A stretch of 52,653 nt of DNA from a virus, in the UHGV virus genome UHGV-0083175. One strand, written 5' to 3'. Position numbers and translations under genes: made by a program. Below the pieces are notes generated by a model. The model did not search any database. It saw only the letters and a program-made list of their open reading frames with translations, and was not told the DNA's origin. This document shows, piece by piece, positions 4,855-14,115 of the stretch (positions are counted from its first letter, which is position 1; the number at the start of each line of letters is the position of its first letter).

Positions 4855-4921
4855 GCCCCAGTTAACATTATGCGTCTTGCAGGACGCTTAACATTAATCT
4901 GAGGCCATATCTATGACTTGC
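4855..4921 (-). ncRNA. sok: Sok-like antisense RNA (predicted)
   Basis: Minus-strand promoter TTGCCT-N17-TAATCT (plus coordinates 4956-4928), antisense to the mok start region. The 3' end is only approximate. Confidence 0.45.
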
Positions 4922-5125
4922 ACACTTAGATTAGCCTCTTATGCGCCGAAAGGCAAGGAGCAGCAGGCTATGAAGCAGCAAAAGGCGATGCTAATCGCCC
5001 TGATCGTCATCTGTATTACCGTCGTTGTAACGGTACTGGTAACGAGGAAAGACCTCTGCGAGGTACGAATCCGAACCGGCCAGACGGAGGTCGCTGTCTT
5101 CACAGCTTACGAATCTGAGAAGTAA
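4913..5125 (+). CDS. mok: Mok-like overlapping reading frame (modulator of killing)
   Basis: 70-aa ORF in the same frame as hok and extending it at the 5' end, as in hok/mok/sok loci. Confidence 0.55.
   Translation: MTCTLRLASYAPKGKEQQAMKQQKAMLIALIVICITVVVTVLVTRKDLCEVRIRTGQTEVAVFTAYESEK
4970..5125 (+). CDS. hok: Hok/Gef family type I toxin
   Basis: MKQQKAMLIALIVICITVVVTVLVTRKDLCEVRIRTGQTEVAVFTAYESEK matches the recalled Hok/Gef family. Confidence 0.9.
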   Translation: MKQQKAMLIALIVICITVVVTVLVTRKDLCEVRIRTGQTEVAVFTAYESEK

Positions 5126-5193
5126 GAGACCCGGCGAGGGAGAAATCCCTCGCCACCTCTGATGTGTCAGGCATCCTCAACGCACCCGCACTT

Positions 5194-5220
5194 AACCCGC
5201 TTCTGCGGGTTTTGTTTTTT
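5194..5220 (+). terminator. Intrinsic terminator of the hok mRNA
   Basis: ACCCGC-ttct-GCGGGT hairpin followed by a T-run. Confidence 0.7.
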
Positions 5221-5273
5221 CCTGGCATTCTGGTTTACAATTCGCACGCCGGCCTGAACAACTGGCACCTGCT

Positions 5274-5564
5274 GTGTCACCGGAGAACCCGATGGCGCAA
5301 CGTATAAAATCCCACAATTCTGAAGCCGTCCCGGCCATTAAGCGGGGGCGGCATTCGCACGTATTTAAAACCGACTGGTACCAGCATCCCCCATGCACTG
5401 AAGAACAGGCCGAATGGCTGATTCAGTGTTACCGCAGGCGCGGATACGAGGTTAAGAAAGCCATCAGCCTCGATTATCGTCACTGGATAATCTCTGTCAG
5501 GCTCCCTTATTCCGAACATCCACCGCGTCCGTCCCGCACATTCCAGCAACGTATCTGGAGGTAA
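5274..5564 (+). CDS. Hypothetical protein (same position as rem in Qin)
   Basis: 96-aa ORF (GTG 5274, alternative ATG 5292) lying between hok and the DUF968 gene, as in the Qin prophage order. Confidence 0.5.
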   Translation: MSPENPMAQRIKSHNSEAVPAIKRGRHSHVFKTDWYQHPPCTEEQAEWLIQCYRRRGYEVKKAISLDYRHWIISVRLPYSEHPPRPSRTFQQRIWR

Positions 5565-5565
5565 C

Positions 5566-6615
5566 GTGCGGGTATTACTTCGACCTGTTCTGGTGCCGGA
5601 ACTTGGCCTGGTGGTCCTTAAGCCTGGACGCGAATCACGGCCTGTTTTTCATTGCGGCAGGGTGCTGGTGGAGCCGGAACCGAAAAACATGCGCGGTCTG
5701 CCGTCCGGAGTCGTTCCTGCCGTTCGCCAGCCGCTGGCAGAGGATAAAACATTACTGCCATTTTTCAGCGATGAGCGGGTTATTCGTGCAGCAGGTGGTG
5801 CAGGTGCACTGTCTGACTGGTTATTACGTCACGTGAAATCCTGCCAGTGGCCACACGGCGATTATCATCACAGCGAAACCGTCATTCACCGTTATGGTAC
5901 CGGCGCGATGGTGTTGTGCTGGCACTGTGACAACCAGCTGCGCGACCAGACATCAGAATCACTCGATCAACTTGCTCAGCAGAATCTGGTTGCCTGGATG
6001 ATTGACGTCATCCGTCACGCAATAAGCGGTACGCAGGAGAGGGAGTTATCGCTGGCCGAATTATCCTGGTGGGCGGCCTGCAATCAGGTGGTGGATGCAC
6101 TACCTGAGGCAGTAGCGCGTTGTTCGCTGGGATTACCAGCGGAAAAAATCCGCTCCGTATACCGTGAGAGTGACATCGTACCGGGAGAACAGACAGCCAT
6201 CAGCATACTGAAGCAGCGCACAAAAAATATTGCGCTGCCACTTCACGTCCACCAGCAACAAAATCCACCACAGAAAAAAACGGTTGTCAGTATCGCCGTT
6301 GATCCGGAGTCTCCTGAATCGTTCATGAGGCGGCCTAAACGTCGCCGTTGGGTTAATGAGAAATACACGCGCTGGGTAAAGACACAGCCGTGTGCGTGTT
6401 GTGGTAAGCCAGCTGACGATCCGCATCACCTGATTGGTCATGGTCAGGGGGGAATGGGAACAAAGGCCCACGATATTTTCACGCTACCGTTGTGCCGGGA
6501 GCACCACAACGAACTTCATGCAGACCCGCAGGAGTTTGAGAAAAAGTACGGCTCTCAGATTGAGTTAATTTTTCGTTTTCTTGATCACGCCTTTGCGACT
6601 GGCGTGCTCGGGTAA
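5566..6615 (+). CDS. DUF968 (YdfU-like) protein
   Basis: GTG start after GGAGG. The C-terminus, C.CCG....DPHHL......GMG.K..D....PLC..HH.ELH, is the DUF968 Zn/HNH-like signature. Same 349-aa length as recalled for YdfU. Confidence 0.8.
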   Translation: MRVLLRPVLVPELGLVVLKPGRESRPVFHCGRVLVEPEPKNMRGLPSGVVPAVRQPLAEDKTLLPFFSDERVIRAAGGAGALSDWLLRHVKSCQWPHGDYHHSETVIHRYGTGAMVLCWHCDNQLRDQTSESLDQLAQQNLVAWMIDVIRHAISGTQERELSLAELSWWAACNQVVDALPEAVARCSLGLPAEKIRSVYRESDIVPGEQTAISILKQRTKNIALPLHVHQQQNPPQKKTVVSIAVDPESPESFMRRPKRRRWVNEKYTRWVKTQPCACCGKPADDPHHLIGHGQGGMGTKAHDIFTLPLCREHHNELHADPQEFEKKYGSQIELIFRFLDHAFATGVLG

Positions 6616-6627
6616 AAGAGGTGACTG

Positions 6628-6990
6628 ATGCTCATAGATTTGGTTTTACCTTACCCGCCGACGGTGAACACTTACTGGCGACGCCGTGGCAGCACATATT
6701 TTGTATCAAAAGCCGGGGAGCGTTATCGCCGGGCAGTGGCGCTTATTGTTCGCCAGCAGCGGCTGAAATTAAGACTGTCCGGACGGCTGGCAATAAAAAT
6801 TATTGCAGAGCCACCGGATAAGCGTCGTCGTGACCTGGACAATTTTCTGAAAGCGCCGCTGGATGCGCTGACGCATGCAGGAATGTTAATGGACGATGAG
6901 CAGTTTGATGAAATCAATATTGTACGTGGCAAGCCAGTATCTGGTGGACGGCTGGAGATAAGAATTACAGAGGTGGGTGTGCATGAATAA
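6628..6990 (+). CDS. rusA: Holliday junction resolvase RusA
   Basis: ..PPDKRRRDLDNFLKAPLDALTHAGMLMDDEQ..GGRLEIRITE matches the recalled E. coli RusA. Confidence 0.9.
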   Translation: MLIDLVLPYPPTVNTYWRRRGSTYFVSKAGERYRRAVALIVRQQRLKLRLSGRLAIKIIAEPPDKRRRDLDNFLKAPLDALTHAGMLMDDEQFDEINIVRGKPVSGGRLEIRITEVGVHE

Positions 6991-7648
6991 CCAGTATTTA
7001 CAGTTTGTTCGTGAGCAACTCATGATTGCCACTGCGGATCTTAGTGGGTCGACAAAAGGCCAGCTGGAAGTCTGGCAGGAAAATGCCCTGTTCGATACAG
7101 GGCGTTACAGACGCAAAAAAATTCGTTACCGCGATGAGGTAACCGGAAAAATGATCACGCGGGATAATCCCCCGATCCCGGGTAAACAATCACTGGCGAA
7201 AGGCTCATCAATTGCCCTGGTCAGTCCGGTTGAGTTTTCGACATCATCATGGCGACGCGCCGTTCTGTCTCTTGAAGAACATCATAAAGCCTGGCTGCTG
7301 TGGTGTTACAGCGGTAGCATTTGCTGGGAGCATCAGATCGCGATAACGCAGTGGGCGTGGACTGAATTTAATGCTCAATCCGGTACCAGAAAAATTGCAG
7401 GAAAAACTCTGGTGCGCCTGAAGACGTTGATCTGGTTGGCGGCGCAGGCGGTAAAAGCTGAGCTTTTTGGTGGGGAAGGTTACGAATACCAGGAACTGGC
7501 GTTACTGGTGGGAGTAACAACCAAAAACTGGTCCAAGACATTTACTGGTCACTGGGTTGCAATGAAACACATTTTTCATCGGCTGGATAGTGAAGCTTTA
7601 TTGTTGGTGGAGGGAACTCGTTCAAAACAAAAGGCGGCATTTTCATAG
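6983..7648 (+). CDS. Late-gene antiterminator Q (Qin/QuuQ type)
   Basis: It sits directly downstream of rusA and upstream of a promoter plus short terminated leader. The ATG at 6983 follows GAGGTGG. Confidence 0.75.
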   Translation: MNNQYLQFVREQLMIATADLSGSTKGQLEVWQENALFDTGRYRRKKIRYRDEVTGKMITRDNPPIPGKQSLAKGSSIALVSPVEFSTSSWRRAVLSLEEHHKAWLLWCYSGSICWEHQIAITQWAWTEFNAQSGTRKIAGKTLVRLKTLIWLAAQAVKAELFGGEGYEYQELALLVGVTTKNWSKTFTGHWVAMKHIFHRLDSEALLLVEGTRSKQKAAFS

Positions 7649-7655
7649 CAAAGTA

Positions 7656-7684
7656 TTGCAAAAGTAGACAAAAAGGCATATATT
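7656..7684 (+). promoter_or_regulatory. Late promoter PR' (predicted)
   Basis: TTGCAA (7656-7661) - 17 nt - TATATT (7679-7684), immediately after Q. A -10-like GATATT in the early transcribed region may be the pause element. Confidence 0.5.
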
Positions 7685-7734
7685 TCGTGTAAATCTGATA
7701 TTTTGCCGTTATTATACGTGATGGCAAAGCCACT

Positions 7735-7760
7735 AAAACCCGTGACCGAGCGGGTTTTTT
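7735..7760 (+). terminator. tR' intrinsic terminator
   Basis: aaaACCCG-tgaccgag-CGGGTtttttt, about 70 nt downstream of the predicted PR' start site. Confidence 0.75.
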
Positions 7761-7833
7761 ACCCCCCAAAAAATGGCATAGACATTAAACGTGATGACGA
7801 TTGTGCCAATACTTTCTCCATCAATGACGCCCC

Positions 7834-7862
7834 TTGACTGCATGGAATCCAATTTGTTATGT
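7834..7862 (+). promoter_or_regulatory. Predicted sigma70 promoter of the membrane-protein moron
   Basis: TTGACT - 17 nt - TTATGT. Confidence 0.4.
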
Positions 7863-7901
7863 AATGTGTGTTGATATTTTTGAGTTGTTAATGGTGTTAC
7901 T

Positions 7902-8615
7902 ATGGATGACAGTGCTCTGCTCAGAAACTCTTCACTTTTTGTCGCTTATATGGGCTGTCTCGGATGGGGGAGCGCTTATTTCTATGGATGGGGTACTTCA
8001 TTTTACTATGGCTTTCCATGGTGGGTTGTCGGGGCTGGTGTCGATGATGTAGCACGAAGTTTGTTTTATGCTGTGACAGTTATTGTTATATTCCTTATTG
8101 GATGGGGAGTTGGTATTGTTTTCTTTTTGGGCATAAAACAAAAGCGCAATATACAAAATTTGAGTTTTATCCGGCTTTTTCTCGCGATATTGCTGCTTTT
8201 TATTCCACCTGTTCTGGAGTTTTCTGTAATTCATCAGCATGTTGAGCCAGATGTACTGATTTTCTGCGTTCTTGCTGCCTTTGCAATCACGCTTTTTGTC
8301 AGGTCTGGAAGAAGACTTGTTTCAGTCAAATGTTTTTCGGAAATGTCTGTTATTCGCCATCACCGAATTGAGTTCATGATGGCTGGGTTTATGATTTATT
8401 TCTGGGCATTCTCTCTTATTGCCGGTTGGTACAAACCACAGTTTAAGAGGGAATATCAGGCGGTCCACTATGAGAATGTATGGTATTACATTATTGCGCG
8501 CTATGATGATCGTCTGGTGTTATCGAAATCATACAGGAGTGGGGGTAAGAAATTCGTTATATTTAATAGCGGAAATATTAATGATTTTGAAATTAATACT
8601 GTCAGAGTACGTTAA
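7902..8615 (+). CDS. Multi-pass inner-membrane protein of unknown function (moron)
   Basis: 237-aa ORF with about 5-6 hydrophobic segments rich in W/Y/F/G. It is visibly AT-rich and occupies the slot downstream of tR' where stx sits in Stx phages. Confidence 0.65.
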   Translation: MDDSALLRNSSLFVAYMGCLGWGSAYFYGWGTSFYYGFPWWVVGAGVDDVARSLFYAVTVIVIFLIGWGVGIVFFLGIKQKRNIQNLSFIRLFLAILLLFIPPVLEFSVIHQHVEPDVLIFCVLAAFAITLFVRSGRRLVSVKCFSEMSVIRHHRIEFMMAGFMIYFWAFSLIAGWYKPQFKREYQAVHYENVWYYIIARYDDRLVLSKSYRSGGKKFVIFNSGNINDFEINTVRVR

Positions 8616-8788
8616 AATTTCCTGAGTAATAAAGATTTTACTGCCCGGCATTGAGCGGTTTTTTTATGCCAGAAAAATGGTGCAGTACATAAAATGTGCA
8701 GGTGGTTATTAATACCGGTCTTTCAGCTTGCTGGCTTTTTTGACAAGAGTTACTGGTGTGTCACGTTAACCGGAAAAGGGAAAAAGAC

Positions 8789-8986
8789 ATGCTGAAACAG
8801 CAGGATATGACAGAAACCGCCAGAGTGGTGTTTAATGAATTAAGCGTCACCGAACCGGCGACAGTCGGGGAGATTGCACAGAATACGTACCTTTCACGCG
8901 AACGCTGTCAGTTAATACTGACCCAGCTTGTTATGGCGGGTCTGGCAGATTATCAGTTCGGTTGTTACAGACGCCTTCAGTCCTGA
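8789..8986 (+). CDS. Small hypothetical protein, wHTH-like
   Basis: MLKQQDMTETARVVFNELSVTEPATVGEIAQNTYLSRERCQLILTQLVMAGL. The track ORF starts further upstream, at 8756. Confidence 0.45.
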   Translation: MLKQQDMTETARVVFNELSVTEPATVGEIAQNTYLSRERCQLILTQLVMAGLADYQFGCYRRLQS

Positions 8987-8996
8987 AGGCTTTTTT
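8973..8996 (+). terminator. Intrinsic terminator
   Basis: GCCTTCAG/CTGAAGGC stem followed by TTTTTT. It spans the stop codon. Confidence 0.65.
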
Positions 8997-9136
8997 ATTT
9001 GTGGTAAATGGGCGGCTGGTGGGTGTTAGGGGCACTCACCAGCCATCTGCTCATGCGTTGGGGTCACAAGCAAACCTCAGGCCCACTGCTTTGCGCAAAA
9101 GCAGAATGAGCCTATCAGAGACAGGCTTAATGATCC

Positions 9137-10195
9137 ATGCTTAATACTGTAAAAATATCCAGTTGTGAGTTAATCAACGCCGACTGCCTGGAATTTATCC
9201 GGTCGTTACCCGAAAATTCTGTTGACCTGATAGTCACGGACCCGCCGTACTTTAAAGTGAAGCCTGAGGGCTGGGATAACCAGTGGAAGGGCGACGATGA
9301 TTACCTGAAGTGGCTGGACCAGTGTCTGGCGCAGTTCTGGCGGGTGCTGAAACCTGCCGGAAGTCTTTACCTGTTCTGTGGCCATCGCCTGGCATCTGAT
9401 ATCGAAATCATGATGCGTGAACGCTTCAGTGTACTGAACCATATTATCTGGGCAAAGCCGTCCGGACGCTGGAACGGGTGCAACAAGGAAAGCCTGAGGG
9501 CGTATTTCCCCGCCACAGAGCGCATTCTGTTCGCGGAACATTATCAGGGGCCGTATCGTCCGAAAGATGCCGGGTATGAGGCGAAGGGCAGGGCACTGAA
9601 ACAGCATGTGATGGCTCCGCTGATTGCTTACTTTCGTGATGCGCGTGCTGCCCTGGGGATAACGGCAAAACAGATAGTGGATGCCACAGGAAAGAAAAAC
9701 ATGGTGTCGCACTGGTTCAGTGCCAGTCAGTGGCAGCTACCGAACGAAAGCGATTATCTGAAATTACAGGCGCTGTTTGCCCGGGTGGCAGAAGAGAAGC
9801 ATCAGCGCGGTGAACTGGAAAAGCCCCACCACCAGCTGCTGGAGACGTATACTTCACTGAACCGGCAGTATGCGGAACTGCAGAGTGAATATAAGCATCT
9901 GCGGCGGTATTTTGGCGTGACGGCGCAGGTGCCGTACACGGATGTGTGGACGCATAAACCGGTGCAGTACTATCCCGGGAAACATCCGTGCGAAAAACCG
10001 GCAGAAATGCTGCAGCAGATAATCAGCGCGAGCAGTCGTCCGGGGGACCTGGTTGCAGATTTTTTCATGGGGTCGGGTTCGACAGTCAAAGCCGCGATGG
10101 CGCTGGGGCGTCGTGCAACAGGCGTTGAGCTGGAGACTGAACGTTTTGAGCAGACGGTCAGGGAAGTTCAGGATTTAGCCAGTCAGAACGGATGA
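9137..10195 (+). CDS. Orphan DNA N6-adenine (beta-class) methyltransferase
   Basis: DPPY motif IV near the N-terminus (..LIVTDPPYF) and motif I FFMGSGST near the C-terminus. No restriction enzyme gene is adjacent. Confidence 0.85.
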   Translation: MLNTVKISSCELINADCLEFIRSLPENSVDLIVTDPPYFKVKPEGWDNQWKGDDDYLKWLDQCLAQFWRVLKPAGSLYLFCGHRLASDIEIMMRERFSVLNHIIWAKPSGRWNGCNKESLRAYFPATERILFAEHYQGPYRPKDAGYEAKGRALKQHVMAPLIAYFRDARAALGITAKQIVDATGKKNMVSHWFSASQWQLPNESDYLKLQALFARVAEEKHQRGELEKPHHQLLETYTSLNRQYAELQSEYKHLRRYFGVTAQVPYTDVWTHKPVQYYPGKHPCEKPAEMLQQIISASSRPGDLVADFFMGSGSTVKAAMALGRRATGVELETERFEQTVREVQDLASQNG

Positions 10196-10235
10196 TATTG
10201 CAGGATTAGTTACGTACCGTTATTATCCTGCGCCC

Positions 10236-10310
10236 GGCCCTTTAGCTCAGTGGTGAGAGCGAGCGACTCATAATCGCCAGGTCGCTGGTTCAAATCCAGC
10301 AAGGCCACCA
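10236..10310 (+). tRNA. tRNA with anticodon CAT (Ile2/Met type), irregular acceptor stem
   Basis: Cloverleaf read by eye: TAGCTCAGTGGT D-arm, CTCATAA anticodon loop, GGTTCAAATCC T-arm, encoded CCA. The 3' acceptor strand is AAGGCC against a 5' strand of GGCCCTT. Confidence 0.7.
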
Positions 10311-10319
10311 TATCACATA

Positions 10320-10396
10320 CCGCCATTAGCTCATCGGGATAGAGCGCCAGCCTTCGAAGCTGGCTGCGCGGGGTTCGAGTCCTCGATGGCGGTCCA
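10320..10396 (+). tRNA. tRNA-Arg (anticodon TCG)
   Basis: Acceptor stem CCGCCAT/ATGGCGG, anticodon loop CTTCGAA, T-arm GGTTCGAGTCC, encoded CCA. Confidence 0.85.
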
Positions 10397-10674
10397 TTAT
10401 CTGCATTATGCGTTGTTGGTTCTGATGAGTGAATCATTGTCTTTTGAGCAACAGGCTATCATATAAGATAGCCTCAGACTTCCTTGTTTATTCTCGCCGG
10501 ATGCTTCGTAGATATTTGCAGGCATCTGTATGCAGGGGTATTATTGCGGCATATATCATCCGGAAAAATAAAAACTACATGCTGATCCGGAGATGATAGT
10601 TACAAGTCCTCCCGGATCCCGCATATTTACTATATTTTATAGATAATTGTTCTTGTTAATATGGAGATGGATAA

Positions 10675-11103
10675 ATGTATTGCCGTGCTGTACCGGTTCT
10701 TGTTTTGATATTAGCCAGTCTGACAACTGGCTGCACAAAAGATGTATCGACAAATAATTATGATGCTTCTCTGTATCACTCAGATAAATTAATAAAGTCG
10801 CAAAATTTGAGCTCATCGGAACGTACCCCTGATGCCAGTGAAGAAATCCGGCTGTATGCCATTCAGGTCAGGAAAGCCATAGAAGAACAGTTAAAGGATG
10901 CGAGTAAGTATTCAGGAAAAGAGTGTTCACTGAGAATGTATATGGCCCCGAATGGTCTTCTGCTACAGGTTAAAAGAGAAAGCGGTGATCCCGATTTATG
11001 TCGTGAAGCGATGAATGCAGTAAAGAATGCTGATATACCATCACCACCGTCTTCAGGAGTATATAAAGCATTTAGAAATGGCGTGCTGGATTTTAAACTC
11101 TGA
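10675..11103 (+). CDS. Lipoprotein carrying a TolA C-terminal (domain III)-like domain
   Basis: Lipobox LTTGC at residues 16-20. The C-terminus ..YAIQVRKAIEEQL.DASKYSGKECSLRMYMAPNGLLLQVKRESGDPDLCREAMNAV...IPSPPS..VYKAFRNGVLDFK parallels recalled E. coli TolA domain III. Confidence 0.85.
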   Translation: MYCRAVPVLVLILASLTTGCTKDVSTNNYDASLYHSDKLIKSQNLSSSERTPDASEEIRLYAIQVRKAIEEQLKDASKYSGKECSLRMYMAPNGLLLQVKRESGDPDLCREAMNAVKNADIPSPPSSGVYKAFRNGVLDFKL

Positions 11104-11238
11104 CAGGGGGAGAAGATTTTCTCCTGTCCTGATGATTTTGGGGCGCTGGAAAGATATTGTGCTGTGAAGTGTTAAATCCCTCACAATTCAGTAAGTTGAC
11201 AGTTGCCTGTCAGACTGAGCATTTGTTAAAAAAATTTC

Positions 11239-11416
11239 GCATGGTGAATCCCCCTGTGCGGAGGGGCGACTGGTGAACGGTATGATCTCTTTGATGATCG
11301 TAAGCGAGAATACGCGGGTTTGGTGTCACCGGGCTGAACTCACCGGGAGGCACCCGGCACCATGCTCATGGTGATACAGAAATGCGGCTTCAGCCCCTCT
11401 CCGGAGGGGCTTTCTT
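11239..11416 (+). ncRNA. Structured RNA module, copy A (unknown family)
   Basis: Closing helix GCATGGTG/CACCATGC, internal hairpins CCCCCT..AGGGG and CCGGG-aggca-CCCGG, and terminator GCCCCTC-tccg-GAGGGGC followed by Ts. Confidence 0.5.
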
Positions 11417-11422
11417 ATGGAC

Positions 11423-11491
11423 AAAAAAAGCCCGCGCTGGGAGACGCGGGCGGCAAGGAATAAACAATAAAACGTGAAGTAATACTTCAAC
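11423..11491 (-). ncRNA. Candidate sRNA, copy 1
   Basis: Minus-strand promoter TTGCGC-N18-TATTAT (plus coordinates 11527-11498), conserved body ACTTCACGTTTTATTGTTTATTCCTTGCC, and terminator GCCCGCG..CGCGGGC followed by T7. Confidence 0.45.
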
Positions 11492-11570
11492 TGGCGAATA
11501 ATACCCGACAGTAATCACTCTGCGCAATAGCGCGGCCTTTTTCGAATTGCGGGCTGTAGTCTCCCTTCTG

Positions 11571-11735
11571 CCGGGTGGCCTGGTTGCAGATTTCTTCATG
11601 GGGTAGGGTTCGGCAGTTAAAGCAGCGATGGCGCTGGGGCGTCGTGCAACTGGCGTTGAGCTGGATACCGGGCGTTTTGAACAGACTGCGCAGGAAATCA
11701 GGGATGTATTTAGCGGGAGCGGTTTGCAGAAGTAA
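11571..11735 (+). pseudogene. 3' remnant of a second N6-adenine methyltransferase gene
   Basis: Nucleotide-level paralogue of 10040-10195. It reads PGGLVADFFMG*GSAVKAAMALGRRATGVEL.., with an in-frame TAG. Confidence 0.8.
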
Positions 11736-11798
11736 TCTCCCAAAATGCCATTTTTGGAATATACTGGTATTAAGTCTTTTTGCTCAGGTTAATTCAAA

Positions 11799-12524
11799 AT
11801 GGATGTTGCCTGCTCTGTGGTCCTGATTCGCTATCCGATAGATATTTTTCTTGAAAAAGAAAAAGTTTCACTCGATGCCGGAAGTGTTATGCTTGTTGCC
11901 AGAAATATAAGAGGGCTTTTCTGTGCTTATGCCGACAGAGTGAAAATGGCAGATATAAGTAACAGCGTCGTCAATCAGTATCTGGAAAGGGAGTGTGAAC
12001 TGACGGAGTATACACCGACAAAAATGCCTCTTTATTTGATGTCTGATATTTACAATACGGAACTGGCGGAGGCTTTAATAACCCAGCATAGTGAATCCAG
12101 TGATACTTTGAAGGATTTCTCTGTTATAACCGCATTTTCATGTATCTCCTTATTTGCAACAGACAGGCGTCTGCCATTATTTTTGTCCGGTGCTGTAAAT
12201 AATATCAGCTGTAAAGTAAGGGCTATAATTCAGACCGACATATCGGCAGGCTGGATGCTAGGTGTGATTGCATTACAATTGCATATGAGCGAAAGCTTGT
12301 TGAAGCGAAAACTTAAGGATGAAGGTTATAGCTTTAGTCGGTTGTTGCTGGAGGAGCGAATGCGTGTTGCTGTTAATCTTGTATGTTTCCAGCGAGAGTG
12401 TGGACAAGCGATAGCGGAAAAATGTGGTTACTCAAGTAAGTCCTATTTCATTTCTGTATTTCACCAGTATTATGGTGCACCACCTGAGAGCTATGCATAT
12501 TTGCAGAAAGCAGACGTTATCTGA
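11799..12524 (+). CDS. AraC/XylS-family transcriptional regulator (moron)
   Basis: C-terminal double-HTH pattern: W.L..IA..LHMSESLLKRKLKDEGYSFSRLLLEERM..A..L......I..IAEKCGYSSKSYFISVFHQYYG.PP..Y. Confidence 0.85.
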   Translation: MDVACSVVLIRYPIDIFLEKEKVSLDAGSVMLVARNIRGLFCAYADRVKMADISNSVVNQYLERECELTEYTPTKMPLYLMSDIYNTELAEALITQHSESSDTLKDFSVITAFSCISLFATDRRLPLFLSGAVNNISCKVRAIIQTDISAGWMLGVIALQLHMSESLLKRKLKDEGYSFSRLLLEERMRVAVNLVCFQRECGQAIAEKCGYSSKSYFISVFHQYYGAPPESYAYLQKADVI

Positions 12525-12613
12525 TGTTTTTTCATCAGGCATATATTGATTGACTGTATTAGATATAGTCTGAATGTGTTCAGCATAAAAAGTTATAATC
12601 ATTTGGTGTTTGC

Positions 12614-12892
12614 GTGAATATTGATGAGAAAATCAGATGTAGCCAACTGTTACAGCGTATTGAAGCCGTCAATGTGGAACGAACAAAGGTCTTCAGTCGT
12701 CTGACAGTTTTATTTTGTACCCCTGATCGACGTTCAGGTCAGGAGATGGTTCTTCTGGATGTAGATGCACTTCGGAACGTCTGTGAGGAGTTCACCGCGG
12801 CTAATTCGGAGTTACTGAGTCTTGTTCAGGAGTACAACAGAATTGCAGGTAGTAACGGTTTTGATGAAATCAAAATTATATCCCGTGGATAA
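12614..12892 (+). CDS. Hypothetical protein
   Basis: 92-aa ORF (GTG start) downstream of the AraC-type gene, within the same AT-rich block. Confidence 0.45.
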   Translation: MNIDEKIRCSQLLQRIEAVNVERTKVFSRLTVLFCTPDRRSGQEMVLLDVDALRNVCEEFTAANSELLSLVQEYNRIAGSNGFDEIKIISRG

Positions 12893-13210
12893 AACATATC
12901 CTGTATATTTATGTTGTTACATACAGGCGCTTTTAGTATCTGCCGCACGGCAGTTGTACTTTAGAATAAGATGCTTTTGTGACTGGTGGTGTTGTATCTG
13001 GGGTTAGCCAGGAGGCAGGTTCAGAGAGTCCGGTGGTAATTATGTGTATGCAGTGGTTGTTGCTGTACCGTGGGCAAGTTCTGGAACTGGCTTCGTCCAT
13101 TGTAGATGATTGTTAGCTGGATATCAGTTACCTCATGGAAATGTTAAATGACTCACAATTCGGTTGATGGACTATTGTCTGATCGATGGAAGTCTTGTAA
13201 AAACGAGCCA

Positions 13211-13375
13211 GCATAGTGAATCCCCCTGTGCGGAGGGGCGTCTGACATGGTCTCCATAGCGATGGTCACAATACGCAGATTCAGTAGTCAGGCTGAATCT
13301 ACCGGGAGGCACCCGGCACTATGCTGCTTATGGTGTATACATAGCGATCGGCCCCTCTCCGGAGGGGCTTTTTTT
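13211..13375 (+). ncRNA. Structured RNA module, copy B
   Basis: Closing helix GCATAGTG/CACTATGC, a compensatory change relative to copy A. It has the same hairpins and terminator. Confidence 0.5.
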
Positions 13376-13469
13376 GTGCGGGAAAAGGCTGTGTTGTTAA
13401 GTGTTAAATTCCTCACAGTTCAGATGGTTGATGCTTGCCTGTCTGAGGGGGAGTTGTTAAAAAAGTTCT

Positions 13470-13634
13470 GCATGGTGAATCCCCCTGAGCGGAGGGGCAT
13501 ATCAGCGCAGGTGTTTCTACTCTATCCTTTCTGTGCGGGTTCAGGTGCTGATACTGAACTCACCGGGAGGCACCCGGCATCATGCATATGGTTAACAGAC
13601 ACGTAGCGAAGCCCCTCTCCGGAGGGGCTTTTTT
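13470..13634 (+). ncRNA. Structured RNA module, copy C
   Basis: Closing helix GCATGGTG/CATCATGC (one G-U pair), variable hairpin TATCAGC/GCTGATA, same terminator. Confidence 0.5.
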
Positions 13635-13729
13635 ATGCAGGGAAAAGGCTGTGTTGTGAAATGTTAAATTCCTCACAATTCATGAGGTTGATGATTGTCT
13701 GATTGATGAGGAGTTTGTTAAAAAAAACG

Positions 13730-13883
13730 GCATGGTGAATCCCCCTGTGCGGAGGGGTGATATCGTATCATTTCATGTGTGGCCGACTGATATCACGGAC
13801 ATTTGTTCACCGGGAGGCACCCGGCACCTGCAGTATACAGAGATTAGGCATACATCCAGGCTCCTCATCGCAGGAGCCTTTTT
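13730..13883 (+). ncRNA. Structured RNA module, copy D
   Basis: 5' GCATGGTG and 3' CACC-TGC (1-nt gap), variable hairpin GTGATATC/GATATCAC, and a different terminator GGCTCCT..AGGAGCC followed by T5. Confidence 0.45.
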
Positions 13884-13889
13884 ACATGT

Positions 13890-13967
13890 AAAAAAAACCG
13901 CTCCCGGGAAGAGCGGTTGGCAAGGAAGCAAGGAATAAATAACAAAACGTGAAGTAATTTATTCAGC
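13890..13967 (-). ncRNA. Candidate sRNA, copy 2
   Basis: Minus-strand TTGCGC-N18-TATTAT (plus coordinates 14003-13974), body ACTTCACGTTTTGTTATTTATTCCTTGC.., and terminator ACCGCTC..GAGCGGT followed by T8. The stem covaries with copy 1. Confidence 0.45.
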
Positions 13968-14115
13968 ACCCTAATAATACCTTAGAGTAATCACCTTGCG
14001 CAACTGTAAGGGCGTATTTCTTTTTTGCGGGCTGTTTTTCTGTGTGACTTTTGTGTTTCCGGAGGTCAGTCCGTGCCTTCTCTGACTCAGAACATTATCC
14101 CGGCCGGGAGGATTC

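Follow-up and report, generated by a model that had tools for sequence, protein, structure and literature searches.

The gene, its family and its cassette

The present analysis concerns a gene located at positions 7902-8615 (+ strand) of the virus genome UHGV-0083175, a DNA stretch of 52,653 nucleotides (nt) which is referred to below as the window. The gene, taken from the list of open reading frames (ORFs), begins with an ATG start codon and encodes a predicted multi-pass membrane protein of 237 amino acids (aa), which belongs to the TfpB/STM1630 family and lies, in a lambdoid prophage, directly after the antiterminator gene Q, the candidate late promoter PR' and the intrinsic terminator tR'. 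An identical stretch occurs in the RefSeq genome of Escherichia coli STEC435, where the same start is annotated and the product, WP_000342737.1, is labelled 'hypothetical protein'. The guanine-cytosine (GC) content drops to 0.37-0.40 over positions 7850-8750, as compared with 0.50-0.57 upstream and 0.49-0.56 downstream, and this foreign base composition fits an accessory gene, as expected. The AT-rich 237-aa ORF that an earlier note had described from the letters of the window is confirmed by the ORF list, the RefSeq annotation and the GC profile. The ORF is present, but the start assigned to it, position 7834, corresponds to a candidate promoter, and the start codon is found at 7902.

No family had been recognised in the earlier note, which has to be revised: the protein is a member of the family catalogued as PF27470 'TfpB', as 'STM1630 family' and as PHROG 1521. 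It matches PHROG 1521, described as of 'unknown function', over residues 17-237 (E 2.6e-85). Of the 104 homologues returned, 103 bear a precomputed PF27470 'TfpB' label, as do the cluster mates with 95-97% identity, and a 98%-identical copy is named 'STM1630 family protein' in a recent PGAP annotation. The cluster representative of STM1630 aligns with 47% identity over its full length (E 5.9e-69), and the membership of STM1630 itself is documented by a published deletion primer that encodes NSSMLLAYLGGLGWG of the Salmonella homologue, by the gene length of 717 bp and by its position adjoining sseJ. The full-length architecture of the family was also found, i.e., about 235-260 aa with the motif AYxYGWG...YG[FY]PWW...ARSL, hydrophobic helices and a C-terminal β domain. 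The protein gave no match in a Pfam copy devoid of the PF27470 model, nor in the NCBIfam and PADLOC scans, and a sequence search of the PDB returned nothing below E 4. The gene is one more copy of an already catalogued family. Literature searches for PF27470, for the WP accessions and for 'STM1630 family' retrieved nothing; the 'TfpB' of the Acinetobacter literature is an unrelated PilB paralogue, and most of the other literature matches deal with chemistry or anaesthesia.

A search of 5.8 billion proteins yielded 104 relatives, nearly all of 236-240 aa and aligned from end to end, with identities down to 41% in Yersinia. As a hidden Markov model search of 1.84 billion cluster representatives retrieved only 71 members, the family is small. 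According to a scan of one genome per species, complemented by neighbour checks and a cluster look-up, it occurs in Escherichia, Salmonella, Moraxella, many Pasteurellaceae, Conchiformibius and Neisseria; the Moraxella bovis locus was matched by tblastn with E 1e-23 and 29% identity. At the DNA level, a TfpB gene was detected in 1197 of the 5426 complete E. coli genomes, and 3 of 50,697 phage records contained a match at the protein level. Pairwise ratios of nonsynonymous to synonymous substitution (dN/dS) range from 0.06 to 0.2 among copies from phage, plasmid, island and chromosome, at synonymous distances going from 0.2 to saturation. The ORF 7902-8615 is a real gene under purifying selection.

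Positions 7778-8630 constitute a self-contained accessory cassette (moron) located just after the tR' terminator of the lambdoid prophage. The cassette is missing in the syntenic Stx2a phages and its borders are sharp: the blastn homology to Stx2a phages resumes at 8655, the homology to the copy on plasmids of porcine enterotoxigenic E. coli (ETEC) begins at 7829-7853 and ends at 8625, and that to the copy of the iroBC/bor island extends from 7737 to 8629. Its composition differs from that of the flanks (GC of about 0.39 vs about 0.52). The left part of the cassette consists of a conserved leader (7778-7834, + strand), common, in the alignment, to the copies lying behind other types of Q and to the iro-island copy, whereas a weak hairpin followed by a U run after the stop codon (8640-8665, + strand) occupies the right edge.

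A close counterpart in a phage is CPT_434_68 of phage 434, annotated as 'putative membrane protein', which displays 56% identity and occupies the slot after a homologous Q and terminator. In 434B, a derivative that forms plaques, DLP12 DNA takes the place of a segment of about 5.5 kb which includes CPT_434_68, and this gene is therefore dispensable for lytic growth. CPT_434_68 and its twin in an O157:H7 prophage share with the window gene both the slot and the promoter-like block described below, but they are followed by a DUF3927 (TciB) gene, the gene of a small membrane protein and nanS-p, instead of the 65-aa gene and the methylase gene of the window; unlike in the window, lpxR occurs upstream of Q. 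This gene, which encodes a lipid A deacylase, is located just upstream of ylcG-Q-TfpB in both phage 434 and the O157:H7 prophage.

The slot after Q and its control elements

The Q gene of the window (6977-7648, + strand; RefSeq start at 6983) is of the PF06323 type (Pfam E 1.3e-90; PHROG 304) and shares 74% nucleotide identity with the Q of phage 434, labelled 'Q82-like' in the corresponding record. A spacer of 254 nt separates its end, at 7648, from the ORF 7902-8615. The spacer harbours the candidate late promoter PR' (TTGCAA-17-TATATT, 7656-7684, + strand), a good sigma-70-like promoter in the consensus scan, both hexamers of which are kept in the aligned sequences of phage 434 and E. albertii, and the intrinsic terminator tR' (7735-7763, + strand), whose hairpin (7735-7758) is made of a 9-bp stem and a 6-nt loop and is followed by a U run. 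The free energy of the hairpin amounts to -11.9 (z -3.3), none of 200 shuffled sequences being equally stable, and the hairpin aligns with the annotated terminator located after Q in phage 434. The position directly after Q, PR' and tR' is borne out by the Pfam match for Q, the consensus scan and the hairpin fold.

A survey of the slots downstream of Q, as recommended in the earlier note, was carried out on the 80 best IMG/VR loci and revealed a fixed placement: in 67 of them, a Q gene on the same strand ends 238-283 nt upstream of the TfpB gene. Depending on the locus, this Q is of the PF06323 type (47 loci), of an unrelated 273-aa type (19 loci) or of the lambda/P22 gp23 type (a single locus), and the Yersinia copies of TfpB follow a Q of a fourth family, of the PF06530 type. 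The genes found downstream of TfpB vary, e.g., a 65-aa gene and a methylase gene, a DUF3927 gene, tRNA genes, stx2 or a holin gene.

The earlier note had also placed the gene in the slot equivalent to that of stx, and in this respect the comparison with Stx phages leads to another conclusion. Stx2a phages display the order Q - 65-aa gene - methylase gene - three tRNA genes - stx2AB - nanS-p and have no TfpB gene, and the window possesses the same 65-aa gene, methylase gene and tRNA genes, all of them downstream of 7902-8615; from this shared gene order, the stx-equivalent position of the window corresponds to 10400-14100, between the tRNA genes and nanS-p. In the Stx2j prophage of NZ_CP027437.1 (51377-58090), a Q gene of 273 aa is followed by a TfpB homologue (84% nucleotide identity), tRNA-Ile, stx2jAB and nanS-p. 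Since this prophage holds both genes, with TfpB upstream of stx, the slot just after tR' is distinct from the stx slot. The expression 'after Q' does not designate one slot: one is located just after tR' and another, that of stx, after the tRNA genes. In an IMG/VR contig (322-5050), Q, a 65-aa gene and a methylase gene precede the TfpB cassette, itself followed by a second copy of the 65-aa gene, so that the cassette can also occupy a second position.

With respect to its own expression, the gene is preceded by a candidate promoter (TTGACT-N17-TTATGT, 7835-7863, + strand), which may alternatively be read with a TGn extended -10 box (TATGTA). In each of 14 loci, a single TTGAC-N16-TGTTAT block is found at a fixed distance of some 40 nt from the start codon; its two ends are invariant, and the spacer in between is variable in sequence and constant in length. 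The block is kept in the ETEC plasmid copies, which are flanked by insertion sequences (IS) and are devoid of Q, PR' and tR'. Such a pattern of conservation looks like the footprint of a promoter and makes the own promoter suggested in the earlier note a plausible candidate; it is rated only as plausible because its -10 box departs from the consensus and the promoter went unflagged in the scan. A Shine-Dalgarno-like GGTG was read from the sequence at 7893-7896 (+ strand), 5 nt before the ATG, and similar purine-rich strings are located at the equivalent place in the homologous loci.

The protein, its relatives outside phages and its possible role

An AlphaFold2 (AF2) model built with close homologues only reached a predicted local distance difference test score (pLDDT) of 62, which rose to 80.1, with a predicted template modelling score of 0.74, when remote members of the family were added. 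The model comprises five helices (residues 10-36, 47-77, 89-111, 116-135 and 155-181) and a five-strand SH3-like barrel (residues 184-235). Hydropathy distinguishes four clear transmembrane (TM) segments and a weaker, aromatic/Gly-rich first segment, and the family-wide balance of K+R minus D+E along the successive segments outside the helices amounts to +0.8 (N-terminus), -0.7, +1.9, 0, +1.8 and +0.5 (after TM5). These values fit a topology with the N-terminus inside, five TM helices and a periplasmic C-terminal barrel. Conservation culminates at residues 21-60 (AYxYGWG...YYGFPWW...ARSL) and 161-210, on the predicted periplasmic side, and both the aromatic/Gly-rich motif of TM1, the loop and TM2 and the SH3-like barrel would face the periplasm. 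Since the family as a whole has not kept a single acidic, His or Cys residue, an enzymatic activity is unlikely. The fold of the model found no match in the PDB or in BFVD.

The description of a multi-pass membrane protein with aromatic/Gly-rich hydrophobic segments agrees with both the alignment and the hydropathy profile. The soluble C-terminus announced with it is present but shorter in the AF2 model, about 55 residues (183-237) instead of about 70. The earlier note had also considered that the protein might turn out to be a fragment of a transporter; no match to a transporter family was found and the architecture is not truncated. A reading of the 'YMGC' stretch (residues 16-19) as a lipoprotein signal was discarded, the Cys residue being not conserved and the box being non-canonical.

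Outside phages, the gene is found in full length in 106 plasmid records of Shigella (S. flexneri, S. sonnei, S. dysenteriae and S. boydii), presumably corresponding to the invasion plasmid pINV; the sole pINV copy inspected, from an enteroinvasive E. coli strain, is located among IS elements and transposase pseudogenes. The plasmids of porcine ETEC carry a copy with 75% identity which is separated from eltA by about 870 bp, the two genes being divergent and on opposite strands; the gene of the heat-stable enterotoxin STb is nearby, and a descent of the region flanking the heat-labile enterotoxin (LT) genes from a phage late region is hinted at. STb is found 3 kb downstream of the TfpB copy, and IS elements border the region as a whole. 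In the iroBC/bor island, the copy sits beside iroB/iroC, with a bor homologue nearby, and is intact in many genomes. The Salmonella copy is located between steB and sseJ, whereas that of Citrobacter rodentium adjoins a split lpxR remnant at the same chromosomal locus, from which Q is gone. In Glaesserella parasuis (locus 4974-8017), the TfpB-family gene adjoins cdtB (NCBIfam E 5e-125), whose flanking ORFs we take, without confirmation, to be cdtA and cdtC, the group lying between the presumed tsaB and tgt genes. Pasteurellaceae possess single copies between housekeeping genes, and a distant Enterobacter copy is located beside umuDC, next to P2-like tail genes. Finally, in M. bovis, M. lacunata and M. 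equi, the copy directly adjoins the gene of the type IV pilin, together with that of an IS110-type recombinase; this is the classical tfpB locus, situated in the invertible pilin segment, and truncation has reduced the copies of M. lacunata and M. equi to 195-197 aa. The Moraxella TfpB, which gave its name to PF27470, has the same N-terminal motif and general architecture as the window protein, but differs by its location beside a pilin gene and not in a phage.

The experimental data on relatives all come from STM1630 (SL1344_1560) of Salmonella Typhimurium which, like the window gene, is a single AT-rich gene (238 aa), but is located in the chromosomal steB-sseJ islet, devoid of Q, PR' and tR', and has its own promoter. 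The STM1630 promoter also differs in place and sequence from the candidate promoter of the window. The expression of the gene follows the conditions of Salmonella pathogenicity island 2 (SPI-2): STM1630 is bound by H-NS, possesses its own mapped transcription start site and is expressed both in SPI-2-inducing medium and in macrophages, and it clusters with the SPI-2 genes in a co-regulation network. In ST313 strains, it is silenced by two single-nucleotide polymorphisms in the -10 box. Attenuation of signature-tagged mutants was observed in calves and in chicks, and a deletion caused no growth defect in LB; the apparent 'essentiality' of the gene in transposon screens is accounted for by its binding to H-NS.

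Taking these data together, we regard it as about evenly poised, between right and wrong, that the protein encoded at 7902-8615 is an envelope factor of lysogenic conversion which benefits the host. It would act on its own, from the periplasmic side of the inner membrane, and its target would be a component that Gamma- and Betaproteobacteria have in common; it would be neither a toxin nor a protein of lysis, nor would the phage require it. This proposal is based on the purifying selection acting outside phages, the dispensability for plaque formation, the stable single-gene copies of Pasteurellaceae, Moraxella and Neisseria, and the expression and infection data available for STM1630. In the lysogen, tR' would insulate the TfpB gene from PR', and a weak or conditional transcription could originate from its own conserved promoter-like block, the AT-rich DNA being probably silenced by H-NS as in the case of STM1630. 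Upon induction, the Q-modified polymerase would read through tR', making TfpB the first and most abundant late message, and the product would be a polytopic inner-membrane protein with its conserved surface turned toward the periplasm.

The outer-membrane proteins Bor and Lom of phage lambda, encoded by late-region morons and expressed in lysogens, offer a suitable comparison. Like them, the window gene has a foreign composition, encodes a putative envelope protein in a late region, may possess its own promoter and would benefit the host rather than the phage. Unlike them, the window protein is a predicted polytopic inner-membrane protein, unrelated in sequence and fold, and its benefit to the host is inferred. 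A Bor homologue sits in the same island as the iro copy of TfpB.

Several points weigh against an envelope factor of lysogenic conversion. The phenotypes of STM1630 are small or inconsistent: its deletion in strain 4/74 raised, and did not lower, the replication in macrophages, and the hypermotility observed in a screen is not among the phenotypes confirmed with clean deletions. The topology is inferred from hydropathy, charge bias and an AF2 model with a pLDDT of 80. The candidate promoter at 7835-7863 has a weak match to the consensus and escaped the promoter scan. No convincing terminator was found after 7902-8615, the fold at 8640-8665 being no better than that of shuffled sequences (z -0.7), a lack which fits the need for late transcription to pass through. 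Some copies are pseudogenes, such as the iro copy of strain ABU 83972, which is frameshifted and deprived of its N-terminus. In addition, the association with virulence loci may merely reflect a shared descent from phage late regions, and the constant placement at the head of the late genes would fit a lytic role just as well.

On a broader scale, it may tentatively be proposed that the TfpB/STM1630 family represents a so far unrecognised class of inner-membrane effectors, horizontally mobile, turned toward the periplasm and unmatched in fold in the PDB and BFVD, which temperate phages have placed as the first gene after tR' and which animal-associated pathogens have retained beside stx2j, LT/STb, cdt, sseJ, pINV and iro. 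Its specific activity might be, for example, a new type of block of DNA entry or a regulated brake on the function of the envelope and on growth within the host. Irrespective of this, the family stands as a conspicuous 'known unknown', present in about one fifth of the complete E. coli genomes, on Shigella plasmids and ETEC toxin plasmids and next to sseJ. If a TfpB function were found, be it exclusion, a remodelling of the envelope or an adaptation to the host, thousands of genes of pathogens could be annotated in one go, and it would become clear why this junction within the late operon is a favoured parking place. The pattern observed at the family level, i.e., a constant place after Q, behind unrelated Qs, and a recurrence beside virulence loci, makes this function directly testable.

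As the main rival to a factor of lysogenic conversion, though a rather unlikely one, the protein could be responsible for superinfection exclusion or defence, either by blocking the entry of phage DNA at the inner membrane or by an abortive collapse of the membrane potential, with expression from its own promoter in the lysogen and by Q read-through in the induced cell. A single-gene, AT-rich mobile cassette with a candidate promoter of its own, sitting in an accessory slot of a prophage, fits such a role, as does a conserved surface predicted to lie on the periplasmic side of the inner membrane, the place through which phage DNA passes. P22 SieA and HK97 gp15 are inner-membrane proteins that block the entry of phage DNA, and P22 SieA and SieB, which have promoters of their own, resemble the predicted window protein in being small inner-membrane proteins of prophages. 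SieA and SieB are, however, not homologous to it, hhalign giving probabilities of 0.2% and 0.1% with SieA and SieB, respectively, and the best PADLOC match of the protein is AbiC with E 0.24; of the types of gene named in the earlier note as typical of this slot, neither a toxin nor a known exclusion or defence family has received support. Moreover, single copies have a housekeeping context in Pasteurellaceae and sit in the pilin locus in Moraxella, a copy occurs in Neisseria, and there was no defence island among the loci examined. Conservation is strongest on the periplasmic face and dN/dS is low, so that no signature of an arms race is apparent, and the expression of STM1630 tracks the SPI-2 conditions.

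Less credit still can be given to a helper of the lytic cycle, which would condition the envelope before lysis, e.g., by setting the timing of holin and endolysin or by assisting the release of virions or toxin cargo. The constant distance of 238-283 nt after Q, whatever the family of Q and with the lysis genes further downstream, and the co-linearity with stx2j in one prophage would accommodate such a helper. But 434B forms plaques without the TfpB gene, the P22 and Stx2a phages examined carry no TfpB gene between Q and the lysis genes, the protein is matched in only the 3 phage records mentioned above, intact copies are kept by purifying selection where the lysis genes are gone, and PHROG assigns no lysis category.

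An accessory role in pilin or pseudopilin systems appears just as improbable as a lytic one. The protein would then interact with subunits resembling type IV pilins, which before their assembly are anchored in the inner membrane, and would thereby influence type IV pili or the type II secretion system and hence adhesion, competence or toxin export, a view prompted by the founding member, located directly downstream of a pilin gene and next to an IS110-type recombinase gene, and by the occurrence of the non-enteric members in Moraxella, Pasteurellaceae, Neisseria and Conchiformibius, groups described as piliated and naturally competent. The ETEC copy adjoins eltAB, and LT is exported by type II secretion. 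The loci examined in Enterobacteriaceae and Pasteurellaceae nevertheless show no linked pilus or secretion genes, and two of the Moraxella copies, those of M. lacunata and M. equi, are truncated.

A functionless passenger decaying in phage late regions, to which the ABU 83972 pseudogene, the many truncated entries in the list of homologues and the weak phenotypes of STM1630 mutants could point, is very improbable and largely refuted by the selection analysis (dN/dS 0.06-0.2), by the full-length conservation from E. coli to Moraxella and Neisseria, and by the full-length copies of the 106 Shigella plasmid records, the one examined lying amid IS elements and transposase pseudogenes.

Other genes of the region

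Upstream of Q, the window contains a DUF968 gene (5566-6615), followed by rusA (6628-6990), which lies between the DUF968 gene and Q. A few hundred bases before the DUF968 gene, a 70-aa ORF (4913-5125, + strand) has an NCBIfam match (E 1.5e-13) to type I toxins of the Hok family. The related STEC435 prophage contains two toxin-antitoxin pairs of the RelE/ParE type as well.

Downstream of the cassette, the 65-aa gene (8789-8986, + strand) belongs to PHROG 331 and displays a weak match to a winged-helix, TrmB-like domain (E 0.002); a terminator-like hairpin occurs at its end (8973-8990). The gene is about 95% identical, at the nucleotide level, in Stx2a phages, where it is located between Q and the methylase gene. 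The methylase gene (9137-10195) and the tRNA genes (10235-10396) follow in the window, and an Rfam scan of positions 6900-10500 detected no RNA family besides the tRNAs.

The stx-equivalent slot of the window, located after the methylase gene and tRNA-Met/Arg and before nanS-p, is filled by three AT-rich ORFs (10675-13606), all on the + strand. The first one (10675-11103) encodes a protein of 142 aa, named 'tolA' by PGAP, which matches the TolA C-terminal domain (PF06519, E 4.6e-22), exhibits a lipobox-like N-terminus (LASLTTGC) and could be a TolA mimic affecting the entry of colicins or filamentous phages. It is followed by a regulator of the AraC family (11799-12524) and by an unassigned ORF of 119 aa (13247-13606). 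The same 3.7 kb of cargo occurs in 78 of the 5426 E. coli genomes.

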